Virus record (IMG/VR): IMGVR_UViG_2778261313_000001
Coordinates: 1-6,465 of that record
Origin: a virus
Taxonomy: Duplodnaviria > Heunggongvirae > Uroviricota > Caudoviricetes
Strand: one strand, 5' to 3'
DNA length: 6,465 nt
Shown here: in pieces, positions 180 to 6,465 of the stretch
Layout of the letters: each line of letters begins with the position of its first letter
Numbering within the stretch: position 1 is the stretch's first letter
Made by a program: the position numbers and the translations under genes
Notes under the pieces: generated by a model
What the model saw: the letters and a program-made list of their open reading frames with translations, nothing else
The model's database searches: none
Told to the model about the DNA's origin: nothing

Positions 180-782
180 TTGGTTAACATGGATAGTATT
201 AAGGGGTCTGGTGCATATTTCCCTATTATCGCTGGCTATAGTAACTTAGGTGATGTTGGTTATCGTCAGTCCTTCGAGTTTGGTTGGACGGGTAGCGGTT
301 CGACTCACGGTTGGCGTACTGGTATTATCCGTATGCGTGGCGATAACGCCAACGGGCAGCAAGCACGCTGGGAATTTACTATGGATGGTGACTTTACCGC
401 AGGTCGTAACGGTAGCTTTAACGATGTTTACATTCGCTCTGACTCCCGTTTGAAGATTAACAAGGAAGAATTACAGGACGGCGCATTAGAGAAAGTAAAC
501 TCCCTGAAAGTCTACACCTACGATAAAGTTAAATCTCTTTCAGATGACACAGTGATTAAACGCGAAGTAGGTATTATTGCTCAGGATCTGGAAGAAGTGT
601 TGCCGGAAGCAGTAGGTATTCAATCCACCGAAGATCCAGAACAACCGGAAGCAATTAAGACTATTTCTAACTCTGCTGTTAATGCCTTGATTATTAAAGC
701 TATTCAGGAAATGGACGCCAAATATCAAGCTAAGATTGAAGCATTGACTAAAGAGATTGCCGAACTCAAAGCAACTAAATAA
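180..782 (+). CDS. 3' fragment of a tail fiber/tailspike gene with C-terminal Peptidase S74-like intramolecular chaperone domain; probably truncated at its 5' side by the IS2 insertion
   Basis: Frame is open from 177, immediately at the IS2 junction (the TAA at 174-176 is formed by the IS2 end plus one flanking base). Possible starts are TTG 180 or ATG 189, neither with a convincing Shine-Dalgarno. Motif RSDSRLK (nt 435-455) gives a Ser...Lys spacing like the catalytic dyad of S74 chaperone domains, followed by GIIAQDLEEVLPEAV, typical of that domain. The part before the motif is Gly/Ser/Thr-rich, fiber-like. Ends TAATAA at 779-784. Confidence 0.6.
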   Translation: MVNMDSIKGSGAYFPIIAGYSNLGDVGYRQSFEFGWTGSGSTHGWRTGIIRMRGDNANGQQARWEFTMDGDFTAGRNGSFNDVYIRSDSRLKINKEELQDGALEKVNSLKVYTYDKVKSLSDDTVIKREVGIIAQDLEEVLPEAVGIQSTEDPEQPEAIKTISNSAVNALIIKAIQEMDAKYQAKIEALTKEIAELKATK

Positions 783-838: not shown

Positions 839-1309
839 ATGTCTCAATTTAATGATATTTTTACTGGTGGTCTGGTAAGTCTGTTCTATCACGCTGATAC
901 CACTAACACCGCTCTCGATCACTCCGGTTACGAAGAAATTAAAGAGTGTGCTGGTTTTCCTGAAACTGGTATCGAGCGCGGTACTGTAGAAGTTAAATCC
1001 TTCTCTTCTCAGTATAACCGTAAGCTGGTAGGGAAACTGAACGTTCCTGATCTGACTCTGACCGTTAACTACATCCCAGGCGATGCGGTGCACGAGAAGC
1101 TCATTAAAGCTGCCGAAGACGGTACTCGAATTCAGATTAAGATTGAATACTATGTTGATGCAGCAAAACAGACTGGTATTCGCACCGCTTTCAACGGCTT
1201 TATTTCTAAAGTTGCTATGAACGGTGGCGATGAAGAAGTTGTAACCAAAGAGTTTACCTTCGCGGTGGACGGAAAGCCGATCAAACAGGAAATCTTCACT
1301 GCCGGATGA
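839..1309 (+). CDS. major tail tube protein, lambda gpV-like tube domain (156 aa); in-frame UGA stop followed by 41 sense codons to TAA at 1433-1435
   Basis: Shine-Dalgarno AAGGGG at 826-831, 7 nt before ATG 839. The segment DLTLTVNYIPGDAVHEKLIKAAEDGTRIQIKIEY lines up with the lambda gpV segment [34 protein letters not shown] as I recall it. Position upstream of the chaperone pair and tape measure gene; terminator downstream. Confidence 0.75.
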   Translation: MSQFNDIFTGGLVSLFYHADTTNTALDHSGYEEIKECAGFPETGIERGTVEVKSFSSQYNRKLVGKLNVPDLTLTVNYIPGDAVHEKLIKAAEDGTRIQIKIEYYVDAAKQTGIRTAFNGFISKVAMNGGDEEVVTKEFTFAVDGKPIKQEIFTAG

Positions 1310-1440
1310 ACTAACGAAGAACTTCCTTTAATAGAACCGGAACCACTACCGGAACATGAAGCGGTGGTGATTCCAGAAGTAGAAGAAGTTACGGCGAAAG
1401 CCACAGCAAAACGAGGCCGCAAGGCTAAGAATTAATTTTA

Positions 1441-1468
1441 AGCCCTGCCTTAATGGTGGGGCTTTTTT
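1441..1468 (+). terminator. rho-independent terminator after the major tail protein region
   Basis: Stem AGCCCTGCC (1441-1449) pairs with GGTGGGGCT (1455-1463), 9 bp including 2 G:U pairs, loop TTAAT, followed by TTTTT at 1464-1468. It begins 6 nt after the TAA at 1433-1435. Confidence 0.7.
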
Positions 1469-1483
1469 ATTGGAGTAATCAAA

Positions 1484-1990
1484 ATGGCAAATGTCGTTAA
1501 TAAGCCCGGCTGGGTCGGATCATCTGCTGTATCGGTGACGGGTAAGCGATGGATGAAAGAAGCATTAACAGCTTTAAAAGTTCCGGCTCCGCGTAATATG
1601 TCGGCAATGGCTGGTCGTGGTATGGATACGGTTGTAGCTACTGCATCGTGGTCTACTTCATTGGGTAATAACTGGGGTGTAACTGCTTCAAACTATCCTG
1701 TTTCCGGTATGCAAAGCAAAGGATCTATGGAGAACCCCGAAAACGTGGGCGTAGGCCGTCTAATTGGCGTTATCGTTGGTCAATTCAATGGCGGTACTCC
1801 TACTATGGCTGTATATCTCCAGAACGGTAGAGCGGGGAATATAACCGTTAATTTGGGTGGTGCTGCTGTCACTGTTCCTTATAACAGTATGCAAAGTGGT
1901 TTTCATTACTACTGGTTAAGCAATCCTCCGGCAGCTTTCCTCAATAACATTAAGAAGACTGGCACTAAGCAGACTTTGAAAATCTCTTAA
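1484..1990 (+). CDS. hypothetical protein (168 aa), Gly/Ser/Thr/Asn/Ala-rich and acid-poor, no obvious signal peptide; function unknown
   Basis: Shine-Dalgarno GGAG at 1472-1475, 8 nt before ATG 1484. 507-nt open frame in AT-rich DNA; co-oriented with and sandwiched between the major tail and chaperone genes. Confidence 0.7.
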   Translation: MANVVNKPGWVGSSAVSVTGKRWMKEALTALKVPAPRNMSAMAGRGMDTVVATASWSTSLGNNWGVTASNYPVSGMQSKGSMENPENVGVGRLIGVIVGQFNGGTPTMAVYLQNGRAGNITVNLGGAAVTVPYNSMQSGFHYYWLSNPPAAFLNNIKKTGTKQTLKIS

Positions 1991-2341: not shown

Positions 2342-2712
2342 ACCCGCTTCTGAATTTCTATTTTCGGCAAATGATGCGATCGGGGCTTAGTAAAGATGAA
2401 ATGGATAATATGCCAATCACTCTGTTTTGGAAATTATACATTTTCGACACCTACTTAGAACCACAAAGCCCCGCGTTTCATGATATGCAGAATGCGATGT
2501 TGCAATATTCCATGTATATGACGTCGCAAGGAATGACACGCGAAACTGCACGCAAACTCAAGCCTAGCCAATTCCAATTAATTAGAGAAGAAAAACTCTT
2601 TAAAACTAAAGAAGAACTGGAAGAAATTGCACGCAAGAAAGAAGAAGAACGTAAAGCGGCAATGCTGAACATGTTTGATCCATCTTTGCTTGAGAAACTC
2701 AGAAGCGGTTAA
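2326..2712 (+). CDS. gpT-like segment of the tail assembly chaperone, probably expressed as a G-T fusion by -1 ribosomal frameshift near 2333-2341 (fusion would span 2033..2712)
   Basis: The -1 frame is open from 2326 (TGA at 2323-2325 closes it upstream), overlapping the last 16 nt of the G ORF, and runs to TAA at 2710-2712. The first in-frame ATG (2371) has no Shine-Dalgarno (preceding sequence TTTTCGGCAA). Confidence 0.6.
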   Translation, partial: KRGKVNPLLNFYFRQMMRSGLSKDEMDNMPITLFWKLYIFDTYLEPQSPAFHDMQNAMLQYSMYMTSQGMTRETARKLKPSQFQLIREEKLFKTKEELEEIARKKEEERKAAMLNMFDPSLLEKLRSG

Positions 2713-2723
2713 AGGGGTAATTT

Positions 2724-5153
2724 ATGACAAAACATATAGTAACAATAGAAGGGGATAATAAAGGTCTAAGGAGAAGTACCAATGAAGCCGCCGACCTTCT
2801 CGATAGTTTGTCTGAAAAGGCAAGTAATATTGATTTTGGTGGTGGCTTATCTGGTCTGACTGGATCTCTTCGTGGGATCGCTGGCTCTGCTGGTTTGGCT
2901 GCTGGTGGTATCGGCTTAGTTGCGACCGCAGTGGTTGCAGCCGCTAAAGCTGGCGCGGAATACGTTAAACAATATTCAGAAGTATCTAAGGCGACCGGAC
3001 TCTCGATTGAATCCCTTCAAAGACTGGAAAAGGAATTTTCTGGTACTGGCCTAACAGTTGAAAAATTCGGTGATATCAACAAAGACACCTTAGATAAGAT
3101 GGGTGATGCATGGGCTAACGGTGGTGGTATTGCTGATGACTTAGAATCGGTTGGTCTTAAGTTAGAAAACTATGCTCACTTCATGACAGATCCGCAAGGT
3201 GGTATGAAAGCGGCGATCCAAGTGTTCTATGACATGAAGAAAGCCGGAAAATCAATGGCTGAAATCAAGTTCATGATGGAATCTTTAGCCAGTGATTCAA
3301 GCCATATGACCAGCCAGCTTGAGAAATATAATAGTGCTCAAGAGGCGATGATCGCTATTCAGAATCAATCTGTTAACGTCACCGAAGAAAACGCTAAAAA
3401 ATATGATAAATTTTCTCAGAATATTAATAAGCTGGAAAATAACCTGAAAGGCGCAGCCATGACCATTACTGGTCCTTTGGTTGATAGCTTAAACTGGTTA
3501 TTTGAATGGTTTAATATTGATTGGGAAAAGAGTTCTCTATTCAGGGCATTAGACCGTCTGAATAAAGAAGGTAAGACCGCAACTGGTGGTATTCTTAACA
3601 CCAACCATAAAGACGCTCAAAAGATTATTGACAAGTACAATAAAGAAAAGCGTTGGAATAATCTAGCAGATTGGGAAAAGGCCGCGATCCGTGGTGCTGG
3701 TGTCGATCCTCGTACTGCTGGCTTTGATGTAGAAGGATTTAAGAAACGTTTTGGTGGGTCTTATAAGAAAAATGGTGCTCTGATTGTCGTAGATGCTGGT
3801 GAACATCTGACACGCAAGGCAGATCCTAACACTGATTTAACTCTACCAAATAAACCAGTAAGACCAGAATCATTGGGTAAATCTGGCAACGAGAAGAAAG
3901 CCGAGGAAGAAGCACGCAAGAAAGCGGAAGAGGCAGCTAAAAAGGCTAAGGAAGCCGCAGAAAAAGCACAGAAAGAACGTGAGGATGCAATCAAGCGTCT
4001 GAATGCACTTGATGTTAAATTGCAAGGGCAAGTTGCAGCGTCTATTGCTTCTCAAAACAAGCAGTTAGAAGCCAGCTTGAAAGATTTGGATACTGCTTTA
4101 GATCTGGGCTTAATCTCTCAGCAAGACGCAGCCGCGAAACGCCAATCCTTAATCGATCAGAATACTGAAAACGTATACAAGATGATTTTAGGTGCTGATC
4201 CGGTTGATGCTCTGAATGCTTTAACACAATTGCAACAAATCAGGGATAATGAGTTAGAAAGCCATAAACGGTTACTTGATGGTAAGGCTATCTCCTACGA
4301 AGAATATATGCGTCGTGTGAATGATACCGAACAAAGTTATTCGCAGATTGAAGATTCTTTGCATGGAATGGATGGTTTTAAAACCAATCAGTTGACCAAT
4401 AGCTTAGACTATCAGGACTCAAATAATCCGTTTGCTAAATTTAATGCAATCGATAAAGAGAAATCGGAAGCCGAACAAGATTATAAAACCGATAAACTCA
4501 AGATTGATGGGATCACCGATCCGGCTAAACGGATGGAAGAATTAGAAAAACTCAATGAAAACCATCAAAAACGAATGGCTGCAATTGAGAAGAAATATGC
4601 TGATGCTCGCCAGTCAATAGCCGATGATATGTACGGCGGTTTTGCTGCTGCAATGACTCTCTTCGGGCAGGAAAACACTAAAGCTATGCAGATGGCTTTC
4701 AATGCTCATAAAGCATTCTCTATCGGACAAGCGACGGTGAACATGTGGACGGCTGCTACCGATGCATGGAACGATCCGACCAACGTAACCACAGGTCAAA
4801 AAATCGCTGCTGCTGCATTGGCTGTTTCTCAGAACATGGGGAACATCGCAAACATCAAGTCTACTAACGTTAGCGGTATGGCTCATGATGGTATCGATAA
4901 TATCCCTCGTGAGGGTACATGGTTGCTTGATAAGGGTGAACGAGTAGTTGATCAGCGTACTAACGGTGATTTGAAAGACTTCCTTGCTGCTCAAAAATCA
5001 GGCGGTGGCAACTCTCAGCCGATTGAAGTTAACGCACCTTTGAACATTAACGGCAACGTTAATAGCTCAGACAAGATGGTCATGGATGCTATCAAACGTC
5101 ACGCTAAGTTAGTTGCTCAGGCGGTAGAAGACGCACAACGCCGTAAGATGTAA
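2724..5153 (+). CDS. tail length tape measure protein (809 aa)
   Basis: Shine-Dalgarno AAGGGG at 2712-2717 before ATG 2724. Largest gene, directly after the chaperone pair. Gly-rich hydrophobic segment near the N-terminus (GGGLSGLTGSLRGIAGSAGLAAGGIGLVATAVVAAAKAG), a K/A/E-rich coiled-coil block (KKAEEEARKKAEEAAKKAKEAAEKAQKERE), and a second hydrophobic segment toward the C-terminus. Confidence 0.9.
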   Translation: MTKHIVTIEGDNKGLRRSTNEAADLLDSLSEKASNIDFGGGLSGLTGSLRGIAGSAGLAAGGIGLVATAVVAAAKAGAEYVKQYSEVSKATGLSIESLQRLEKEFSGTGLTVEKFGDINKDTLDKMGDAWANGGGIADDLESVGLKLENYAHFMTDPQGGMKAAIQVFYDMKKAGKSMAEIKFMMESLASDSSHMTSQLEKYNSAQEAMIAIQNQSVNVTEENAKKYDKFSQNINKLENNLKGAAMTITGPLVDSLNWLFEWFNIDWEKSSLFRALDRLNKEGKTATGGILNTNHKDAQKIIDKYNKEKRWNNLADWEKAAIRGAGVDPRTAGFDVEGFKKRFGGSYKKNGALIVVDAGEHLTRKADPNTDLTLPNKPVRPESLGKSGNEKKAEEEARKKAEEAAKKAKEAAEKAQKEREDAIKRLNALDVKLQGQVAASIASQNKQLEASLKDLDTALDLGLISQQDAAAKRQSLIDQNTENVYKMILGADPVDALNALTQLQQIRDNELESHKRLLDGKAISYEEYMRRVNDTEQSYSQIEDSLHGMDGFKTNQLTNSLDYQDSNNPFAKFNAIDKEKSEAEQDYKTDKLKIDGITDPAKRMEELEKLNENHQKRMAAIEKKYADARQSIADDMYGGFAAAMTLFGQENTKAMQMAFNAHKAFSIGQATVNMWTAATDAWNDPTNVTTGQKIAAAALAVSQNMGNIANIKSTNVSGMAHDGIDNIPREGTWLLDKGERVVDQRTNGDLKDFLAAQKSGGGNSQPIEVNAPLNINGNVNSSDKMVMDAIKRHAKLVAQAVEDAQRRKM

Positions 5154-5203: not shown

Positions 5204-5764
5204 ATGTTCAAATCCAAGAATATTAAAATCACAGATTTTACTCTTAAATCAAAACAGCCTTTCTTCAAGGCGCAATCTATCTCCGGTAAATTTCAACGTC
5301 GCTTTACTGGCATTCATTTTTACGAAGCAGAATTTACCGCGAATTACATGGCTCAGGATATTAACGAAGTAAAAGAATTTGTAGCACGTCACCTTTTTGG
5401 TCGTCCTTTTAGTGTGCCACTGTCTTACTTTTCAAAATATACAGGTGATGTACGCCAGATGGTTACGGCTGCTGCTGGTACTGCTCGCGGTGGGCGTAAG
5501 GTGAGAATCTCCAACTTCACCGGAACACTGAAAGCGGGAACTATCATCCAGTTTGAGAACCACAAGAAAATCTACACGATCACCGAAGATGTGAAATCAG
5601 GTGGCGAAATGAAACTCTTCCCTAATTTGCGTCAGAACGTCCTGGCTGGTGAGGTGATCAAGTATCAGAACGTAGAAGGTGAATTTGTTCTCAAAACGGA
5701 AAATATCGATTGGAAGATCGCCCAGATTGGCAAGATGAAATTCGAATTAGTGGAGAATGTATAA
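5204..5764 (+). CDS. minor tail protein immediately after the tape measure gene (186 aa); candidate distal tail or tail tip assembly protein
   Basis: ATG 5204 with GGGGG (5192-5196) 7 nt upstream; stop TAA 5762-5764. Assignment rests on synteny only. Confidence 0.75.
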   Translation: MFKSKNIKITDFTLKSKQPFFKAQSISGKFQRRFTGIHFYEAEFTANYMAQDINEVKEFVARHLFGRPFSVPLSYFSKYTGDVRQMVTAAAGTARGGRKVRISNFTGTLKAGTIIQFENHKKIYTITEDVKSGGEMKLFPNLRQNVLAGEVIKYQNVEGEFVLKTENIDWKIAQIGKMKFELVENV

Positions 5765-6393
5765 TGGCAACTATTCAGGAATCATTCAGCAAACTATGCA
5801 CTAATCTGGACTTCATCGAGGTATACAACGACCAGACAGGTCAGAATGTGTCTAGATTGACTCTACCGCAGCTTTTCTCTACTGGCTCGATGTTTCACAT
5901 TATCGAAGTGATAACAGCGTCAGGGGACGTTCTACGGCTTACAGATGGGTATTTCGATTTGGACTATAACGGTTTTACATATCTCGCAACGGGTGATTTT
6001 CTTCAAATCTCATCGAATACCGAAGAGAAGGAGATCAACAACAACGGGATCAACGTAACTGTTTCTAACGTTCGCGAAGAATACATTAGCCTGATTCGAA
6101 ACAAGCAATTCGATAAATCTGATGTGAAAATCGAGATGGTTTTCCTTAACCCCAACACGGGCAAGGTTGAAACTACTTACCCTGTTTTCCGTGGGGTAGT
6201 CGATTCCATCGGTATTAACATCGAACATGAAGATGATGAGTGTAAAAACGAATCAGAATTTCAGCTTAATAGTATCTGGGAAGTTCTAGATAAAAACGCT
6301 CGTAGTCATGCCTCCGATGGTATCCACCGATCCTATGTTGGAAACGAGAACGATCTATTCTTCTCTCGTGCCGGGAAGTGGCAAAGCGGGTAA
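5764..6393 (+). CDS. minor tail / tail tip protein, 3'-truncated by IS1; phage-derived part is 5764..6388 and the stop codon comes from the IS1 terminus
   Basis: ATG at 5764-5766 overlaps the upstream stop (TAATG) with GGAG at 5752-5755; the track's 5710 start would overlap the upstream gene by 55 nt and is less likely. The frame runs into the IS1 terminal repeat that begins at 6389; the last codon GGG spans the junction and TAA 6391-6393 is IS1 sequence. Confidence 0.7.
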   Translation: MATIQESFSKLCTNLDFIEVYNDQTGQNVSRLTLPQLFSTGSMFHIIEVITASGDVLRLTDGYFDLDYNGFTYLATGDFLQISSNTEEKEINNNGINVTVSNVREEYISLIRNKQFDKSDVKIEMVFLNPNTGKVETTYPVFRGVVDSIGINIEHEDDECKNESEFQLNSIWEVLDKNARSHASDGIHRSYVGNENDLFFSRAGKWQSG

Positions 6394-6465
6394 TGACTCC
6401 AACTTATTGATAGTGTTTTATGTTCAGATAATGCCCGATGACTTTGTCATGCAGCTCCACCGATT
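6389..6465 (-). mobile_element. IS1 insertion sequence, terminal 77 bp (right inverted repeat end); the element continues beyond the window
   Basis: 6389-6465 reads GGTAATGACTCCAACTTATTGATAGTGTTTTATGTTCAGATAATGCCCGATGACTTTGTCATGCAGCTCCACCGATT, which I recognise as the reverse complement of the IS1 right end, including the 23-bp terminal repeat GGTAATGACTCCAACTTATTGAT. From memory, not a search. Confidence 0.88.
6404..6465 (-). CDS. insB: IS1 transposase InsB, C-terminal ~20 codons (partial)
   Basis: - strand translation ends ...[21 protein letters not shown] with stop TAA at 6406..6404, matching the InsB C-terminus as recalled. Confidence 0.8.
   Translation of the reverse strand, partial: [19 protein letters not shown]

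Follow-up and report, generated by a model that had tools for sequence, protein, structure and literature searches.

Conserved UGA stops with in-frame extensions behind the tail tube and major capsid genes suggest that an Escherichia coli prophage family makes minor extended virion proteins by stop-codon readthrough

We analyzed a 6,465-nucleotide (nt) metagenome contig (OJKF01000294.1; the whole of this stretch is hereafter called the window) that holds the tail module of a siphovirus-type prophage, in which the tail tube gene ends in a TGA and the same frame stays open behind it as far as a second stop beside a terminator. The same arrangement recurs behind the tube and major capsid genes of related prophages, and comparison of these sequences suggests that this Escherichia coli (E. 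coli) prophage family probably makes minor extended forms of both proteins by stop-codon readthrough; programmed readthrough at the UGA is, in our estimation, quite likely and the best explanation for the conserved stop and extension. In the window, the base after the TGA (1307-1309) is A, the frame behind it reads TNEELPLIEPEPLPEHEAVVIPEVEEVTAKATAKRGRKAKN (41 sense codons, 1310-1432, up to the TAA at 1433-1435), and the other two forward frames shut after 7 codons and 1 codon. These features had been pointed out in an earlier sequence-only reading of the window, together with a Pro/Glu-rich linker and a basic tail (net charge -9 and +6, respectively), and each of them is borne out. Two of its figures needed correction: the terminator hairpin begins 4 nt past the TAA rather than 6 nt, and the predicted tube readthrough product has 198 residues, with the UGA position included, rather than 197. 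The same reading had warned that 41 open codons are not rare by chance, and they do occur in 8-11% of random or shuffled sequences of the same composition; taken alone, the single window sequence is weak evidence that merely suggests an extension.

The product of the tube gene is a lambda-like tail tube protein. It matches Pfam PF16460 (29 bits against a cut-off of 28.4), its body has the YDC107, NF5 and lambda gpV tubes as its best fold matches (Foldseek, E 2e-7), and its core is modeled with a predicted local distance difference test score (pLDDT) of 80-92 (AlphaFold 2, AF2). The gene, whose ATG is preceded by a Shine-Dalgarno-like AAGGGG (826-831), lies upstream of the tail assembly chaperone G/T and tape measure genes.

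About 60 related loci were collected from viral contigs, metagenomes and complete E. coli genomes by protein and DNA searches; the full locus is present in 20 of the 5,426 complete E. coli genomes. Thirty-five loci with a tube protein at least 82% identical, together with five further E. coli genomes, made up a set of 40 tube loci (21 distinct sequences). Every one of these has TGA as its first stop and ACT as the codon behind it, and an in-frame extension of 36, 39, 40 or 41 codons follows, which shares a recognizable peptide (...VIPE.E.VTAKATAKR.RKAK.) and ends in a strong stop 2-6 nt ahead of the terminator. The two codons ahead of the TGA vary (GCC GGA, GCC GCT, GCC TCT, GGT GGT or GGC GGA), and TGA-ACT-NNC-GAA-GAA-C is invariant across the tube-gene alignment. 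Relatives at or below 74% tube identity end in TAA, often TAA-TAA, with a terminator within about 10 nt and nothing between; because the terminator of these extension-less relatives follows their TAA so closely, the rule of a stop and then a terminator is held in the extended loci by the stop of the extension, not by the TGA. No sense codon stands at the position of the tube TGA among the relatives examined. The sequence-only reading had proposed an alignment of homologues to separate mutation from readthrough, and what the alignment shows, a conserved stop with a conserved in-frame extension downstream, is the pattern of readthrough.

Codon-level comparison (Nei-Gojobori) gave a ratio of nonsynonymous to synonymous differences (pN/pS) in the tube extension of 0.41-0.50 in frame 0 vs. 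0.81-1.30 in the wrong frames; the value for the tube body is 0.17. Synonymous divergence in the tube body reaches 0.34 per site, yet no extension has gained a stop or frameshift, and a divergent replacement block in the linker (QPQPIQDEPT) retains frame and composition. The Prokaryotic Genome Annotation Pipeline (PGAP) annotates the short tube protein only and leaves the extension as an unannotated gap. Two apparent fused proteins in public databases, P0004 (L003, 41-637) and P0029 (L004, 968-1249), were rejected as genuine Trp fusions: both carry TGA in the DNA, and the gene caller had used a code in which TGA is Trp. Also rejected, for the tube, was an antisense open reading frame (ORF; 1150-1422) as a conserved gene, being open in at most 5 of the 21 tube sequences; antisense opening in the capsid set is explained by composition.

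The same cassette stands behind the major capsid gene. In NZ_CM149869.1 (L001), an intact copy of the window prophage whose 31 genes end in TAA (25), TGA (5) or TAG (1), the major capsid gene ends in TGA-A with ACT as the next codon, and 42 in-frame codons (TPVEPSEPSPDSGEENLIPKPEEESQTVTAKATAKRGRKPKE, 10186-10317) are followed by TGA-TAA and a terminator. The capsid and tube copies share the 3' core of the cassette, GTTACGGCGAAAGCCACAGCAAAACGAGGCCGCAAG, without a single nucleotide difference, and the L001 prophage contains this core in exactly two places (10267-10302 and 16210-16245; 1385-1420 in the window). Besides the tube stop there are four TGA stops in L001; that of the capsid gene carries the cassette, and two others that were examined have no similar sequence downstream. 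In-frame TGAs occur in the prophage at the ends of the tube and capsid bodies only.

The cassette recurs on capsid alleles merely 38-41% identical over their last 200 residues, with extensions of 28, 33, 42, 43, 44 and 45 codons; apart from L001, the loci are L074-L076, L078, L084, L096, L097 and L099-L105, and two sister prophage groups that close their tube gene with a plain TAA have it as well. All 10 distinct capsid sequences read TGA-A (next codon ACT in 7, AAT in 3), as do two further distinct capsid sequences from sister prophages that were kept outside the pooled set described below. The cassette thus behaves as a module, common behind the capsid gene and, behind the tube gene, present in a single subclade to which the window belongs. 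For the capsid extension, the indications of coding come from frame maintenance and composition. A 33-residue 'hypothetical protein' (P0030) called inside the capsid extension is an annotation artefact of the cassette. A database search with a profile of the extension peptide returned this mis-called ORF as its sole match, with no other carriers and no sense-codon fusions.

Elsewhere, no match was obtained among the species-representative genomes of GTDB by protein patterns or by the extension DNA motif, and a nucleotide search of cultured phages likewise gave no match. Protein searches of cultured phages yielded a single distant relative, Escherichia phage DCP80 (L098; PQ671644.1, 5500-15000), whose tube and capsid genes end in TAA. 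The DCP80 record is classed as Straboviridae (T4-like, 141 kb) and holds a lambda-like capsid/tube/chaperone module related to the window prophage; it may be a chimeric assembly. In its tube protein a short acidic tail is fused directly (...GEKPTEEPIV).

We then pooled the distinct nucleotide sequences, of which 21 follow tube genes and 10 follow capsid genes. In all 31, the first stop is TGA, the base after it is A (next codon ACT in 28, AAT in 3), and both other sense frames are shut; the extension closes with TAA in 28 and with TGA in 3. The codons ahead of the first stop vary (GGA, GCT, GGT or TCT; GAA, GAC, GAG or GAT). When we walked back from the peptide motif with the upstream gene ignored, in all 28 of the distinct contexts the first in-frame stop met was the TGA that closes the long tube or capsid ORF. 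Length has changed at least eight times, each time by a multiple of three. Across relatives the open frame lies well outside chance: shuffling of alignment columns left all sequences open in 0 of 5,000 trials for each gene, a crude test in that indel phase is scrambled too. The first stop is always UGA and never a sense codon, UAA or UAG, as is expected of a conserved leaky stop, and the sequence downstream keeps the frame of the gene, bears coding signatures and has no initiation signal, as is expected of an extended frame. Programmed readthrough, which the sequence-only reading had raised as one of two possibilities, thereby gains the conserved TGA-ACT with its in-frame extension (35 loci at 82% identity or more, and 5 genomes) and the capsid cassette; the case is one of sequence comparison.

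All variants of the extension are bipartite: a Pro-rich linker that is acidic (net charge -3 to -9) comes first, then a basic tail whose charge stays at +4 to +6 in 31 of 31 despite sequence change (KRGRKAKN, KRSRKAKD, KRGRKSRK, KKVGRPPKAK, KKQRKTKE). As charge layout and composition are kept, selection on the peptide is indicated. Residues 157-198 of the tube product have no predicted structure (pLDDT 42-58, AlphaFold), and the extension is predicted to be disordered; it matches no Pfam domain and, at 41 residues without secondary structure, is not a folded domain of the immunoglobulin (Ig)-like or fibronectin type III (FN3) kind. An AT-hook (PF02178) was tried and rejected, being sub-threshold (13.4-14.7 bits vs. 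17.4) and confined to GRPPKAK capsid variants; the basic tail of the window gave no match to it. In lambda gpV the tube domain comprises residues 1-156 and the C-terminal domain projects outward (PMC8718954); because that domain follows residue 156, the tube extension should by homology be external on the tail.

How might the UGA be decoded? No Shine-Dalgarno sequence precedes any in-frame ATG, GTG or TTG in the extensions, and such codons are altogether absent from two capsid variants, so that translation of the extension requires passage through the TGA. No RNA structure or selenocysteine insertion sequence (SECIS)-like hairpin is conserved between the UGA and the terminator (RNAalifold, covariation term -0.04; the terminator alone is supported), a region in which indels and a replacement block occur. 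In the window, a hairpin some 30 nt past the TGA was rejected as a stimulator, since it is not conserved in the replacement-block variants and shows no covariation. No gene for a suppressor tRNA, or for any tRNA, was found in the 36 kb of prophage. Because there is neither a suppressor tRNA nor a conserved RNA structure or SECIS, near-cognate decoding is the simplest route; competition of near-cognate tRNA-Trp with release factor 2 (RF2) at UGA is an established E. coli mechanism (PMC10570021). A UGA with A behind it is prone to misreading by tRNA-Trp in E. coli, according to Engelberg-Kulka (1981) as cited in PMC5289835, and RF2 binding at UGAA is relatively weak (PMC5373646). The leaky stop of the Qbeta coat gene, a validated one, reads UAC UGA ACU, its hexamer UGA-ACU being the same as in the tube gene, and this UGA is read through with Trp about once in 15 times (PMC8067240). 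High-copy virion genes usually end in UAA (PMC5289835; for SPP1, PMC6316719), unlike the two highest-copy genes of the prophage, tube and capsid, which end in UGA-A.

From these comparisons we infer that readthrough occurs, as well as the amino acid inserted, its level and its function. The tube TGA would be deliberately leaky: most ribosomes would stop there, giving the 156-residue tube protein, and a minority would insert an amino acid at UGA-A, most likely Trp by competition of near-cognate tRNA-Trp with RF2, and go on through 41 further codons until the TAA beside the terminator, giving the 198-residue form. The extra 41 residues would make up a disordered appendage on the outside of the tail, with an acidic proline-rich spacer and a lysine/arginine-rich tip. 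The capsid cassette would put a like tip on a few head subunits; with Trp at the UGA, the predicted capsid junction is ...VD-W-TPVEPSEPSPDSGEENLIPK. A level of a few per cent, as in Qbeta, would give a handful of copies per tail and per head. Our best guess at the function is weak electrostatic adhesion to anionic surface polymers, like that of frameshift-added Ig-like/FN3 decorations.

Several observations weigh against programmed readthrough. The pooled sequences are closely related and recombining, and their counts overstate the number of independent events; all close relatives are uncultured prophages; and sister prophages do without the tube extension, indicating that it is not essential. 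The natural E. coli RF2 is efficient at UGA, and two confirmed K-12 chromosomal readthrough products are undetectable with it (PMC5373646); because it terminates at UGA better than the K-12 variant does, the level of readthrough may be very low. In the capsid extension, frame 0 does not stand out by pN/pS (0.69 vs. 0.80 and 0.61). The 3' half of the extension is low in synonymous diversity (0.18-0.23 vs. 0.34 in the tube body), being near-invariant even at synonymous sites and identical in both copies of one genome, which could reflect a nucleotide-level function, gene conversion or recent spread rather than peptide selection. The capsid pN/pS, the 3' half shared by the two copies and a similar terminator that always accompanies the element would all suit a non-coding 3' untranslated region (3'-UTR) or terminator cassette, acting in mRNA stability, processing or termination and duplicated after two highly expressed late genes, with the open frame incidental. 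This is unlikely: it leaves unexplained the constant agreement in frame with the gene upstream across three different contexts, the length changes in multiples of three and the openness of frame 0 alone in all 31 sequences; linker and tip change in sequence yet keep their charge and, in the linker, composition; and RNAalifold supports no conserved structure beyond the terminator.

Readthrough could also be regulatory, with ribosomes past the UGA masking the 5' arm of the terminator and tying downstream tail-gene transcription to UGA decoding (tRNA-Trp/RF2 balance, growth state), the peptide being minor. Every family member has 2-10 nt between its final stop and the terminator stem, and E. coli UGA readthrough responds to physiology (cyclic AMP, temperature; PMC10570021), but the plain-TAA relatives already have a stop beside the terminator, so that masking needs no readthrough, and the conserved charge pattern and composition suggest selection on the peptide. 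We regard the regulatory account as quite improbable; terminator masking could possibly coexist with programmed readthrough as an added effect. The other possibility raised in the sequence-only reading was an ancestral longer tube gene hit by a recent nonsense mutation, in keeping with decay of the element, so that the extension would be a decaying remnant. Insertion sequences (IS2 and IS1) do bound the window and truncate the tail fibre and hub genes, and an Edwardsiella-type relative has a short fused tail (...NVIPEAVAAKEK) without a stop; yet none of the 40 loci lacks the TGA, which intact prophages from many unrelated E. coli strains carry too, no sense-codon version turned up among the relatives, no extension acquired a new stop or frameshift over the divergence of the tube body, and the capsid gene is arranged alike. 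On these comparisons we reject decay. An independent small gene or some special decoding (selenocysteine, a phage suppressor tRNA or reassigned TGA, ribosome hopping) has an equally slim chance of being correct. P0030 is annotated as an ORF inside the capsid extension, and metagenome gene callers translated TGA as Trp; against a small gene, there is no conserved start or Shine-Dalgarno sequence, and two variants lack any in-frame start; against selenocysteine, no SECIS-like structure lies 3' of the UGA; against suppression or reassignment, the 36 kb hold no tRNA gene and the two other TGA stops examined lack the cassette; and hopping is unlikely because the codon ahead of the stop varies and there is no take-off/landing pair.

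The nearest likeness to the proposed readthrough is the coat/A1 gene of Qbeta (Qubevirus, a single-stranded RNA coliphage): the host species is the same, the hexamer UGA-ACU ends the gene of a major virion protein, the in-frame extension opens with a proline-rich spacer, and a minor long form stands among many short copies. A1 is made by near-cognate tRNA-Trp decoding at a low fixed ratio (about 1/15; PMC8067240), as we propose for the prophage cassette. There is no sequence homology, and the two extensions differ in kind: that of Qbeta has 196 residues ending in a folded globular domain needed for infection, whereas those of the double-stranded DNA tailed prophage have 28-45 residues, are predicted to be disordered, stand on both capsid and tube, and are dispensable at least on the tube. 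The adventitious readthrough of nudL and pheL in E. coli also involves a near-cognate tRNA at UGA with no RNA structure or SECIS (PMC5373646), but these products are viewed as by-products of the weak K-12 RF2 and have no conserved extensions, whereas stop, context and extension in the prophage are conserved across strains and in two genes.

The sequence-only reading had likened the element to frameshift-made tube extensions, and as an analogy this is apt. In SPP1 (gp17.1*), Listeria A118, A500 and PSA, Lactobacillus A2 and T3/T7 (10B), two products share an N-terminus, on the major tube and in several also on the capsid, the C-terminal extension is exposed outside, the ratio is set by the recoding efficiency, and the extension is non-essential where tested (PMC8718954, PMC5009743, PMC6316719). 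Those cases use a +1 or -1 slip and add a folded Ig-like/FN3 domain of about 80-100 residues; the prophage cassette, in contrast, lies in frame 0 behind a UGA, has no slippery site, and encodes a short disordered peptide with no Pfam domain. Lambda gpV shares the tube fold and the 156-residue domain length and likewise has an outward C-terminal addition after the tube domain (PMC8718954), but there a folded Big_2 domain is present in every subunit with no stop, and identity over the tube domain is merely about 15%. A distant member of the tube family (L059; IMGVR_UViG_2791354933_000011, 1968-2100), whose tube gene is 46% identical, carries a canonical -1 signal one codon ahead of its TAA (G_GGA_AAC, a 6-nt spacer and an 8-bp GC hairpin with a GGAA loop), and its -1 frame stays open for about 41 acidic Pro-rich codons, ending at the terminator. 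This variant, found in one contig only, suggests that the tube family acquired C-terminal appendages by more than one recoding route.

The features of the window are collected in Table 1. Its ends are formed by IS2 (1-178) and IS1 (6392-6465), 100% identical to annotated copies, which cut short the tail fibre and hub genes; either the prophage is interrupted in this copy or repeats are where the contig broke off, and the damage has no bearing on the tube stop. The gene with a Gp38_N adhesin domain (1484-1990) is found between the tube and chaperone genes solely in the clade with the tube extension; in outgroups the tube terminator is followed directly by the chaperone gene. Tube extension, terminator and Gp38_N gene may have arrived together. 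At the chaperone junction, the G ORF ends in GTA AAG TAA (2333-2341) and the T frame (-1) is open from 2338 (2338-2712); no classical slippery heptamer is present at this junction in the window, and a -1 slip of tRNA-Lys on A_AAG beside the G stop would yield the usual G-T fusion.

Table 1. Positions of the tube gene, its stop and extension, and the other features of the window.
Feature	Position	Strand	Basis
Tail-fibre C-terminus with S74 chaperone domain	180-782		ORF and Pfam listing
Tail tube gene	839-1309	+	ORF, 156 residues, ATG start
Tail tube protein body, 156 codons, lambda gpV-N-type fold	839-1306	+	Pfam, Foldseek, AF2, gene order
Putative leaky stop context TGA-ACT (UGA 1307-1309, +4 A)	1307-1312	+	Unchanged across all 21 distinct tube-gene sequences
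Extension part 1: acidic Pro-rich linker, 28 codons, TNEELPLIEPEPLPEHEAVVIPEVEEVT, net charge -9	1310-1393	+	In frame with tube gene
Extension part 2: basic tail, 13 codons, AKATAKRGRKAKN, net charge +6	1394-1432	+	Charge kept across variants
TAA, strong stop closing the extension	1433-1435	+	Sequence; TAA in 28/31 distinct sequences, often doubled
Intrinsic terminator: 10-bp stem, 5-nt loop, T-run	1440-1471	+	Hairpin 1440-1464; compensatory changes in alignment
Gp38_N-domain gene	1484-1990		ORF and Pfam listing
Tail assembly chaperones G and T	2033-2341 and 2371-2712		ORF and Pfam listing
Tape measure gene	2724-5153		ORF and Pfam listing
Distal tail protein; hub	5204-5764; 5764-		ORF and Pfam listing

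The textbook case of stop-codon readthrough in phages is the RNA phage Qbeta. To our knowledge, every extended tail or capsid protein known from a tailed phage arises by frameshifting and gains a folded domain. In the literature searched, an incomplete library, we found no description of readthrough in the capsid or tail genes of tailed phages, and utilized readthrough of stop codons is regarded as rare in bacteria relative to frameshifting (PMC5373646). On the present comparisons it is reasonably probable that tailed double-stranded DNA phages of E. coli use Qbeta-style UGA readthrough by means of a portable cassette (UGA-A, an acidic proline-rich spacer, a basic tip, a strong stop and a terminator) placed behind capsid and tube genes, so that each virion would bear a few flexible charged 'whiskers', on the head as well as the tail. 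If true, Caudoviricetes would have their first virion decoration produced by readthrough, a counterpart in nature to low-valency phage display. Annotation pipelines now in use cut such genes short, or produce fusions when they apply the wrong genetic code. Sequenced strains such as E. coli CE0007a (NZ_CP119011.1), STEC1575 (NZ_CP116044.1), PSJ-22 (NZ_AP027634.1) and 23CRST001 (NZ_AP045758.1) are intact lysogens, and the prediction is therefore cheap to check; confirmation would give phage engineers a natural, tunable, low-copy display site on head and tail. It would also mean that tailed phages too exploit the intrinsic leakiness of UGA-A, that a readthrough signal may be as small as a stop and its 3' neighbor, and that the selected payload can be a short disordered charged peptide rather than a domain.

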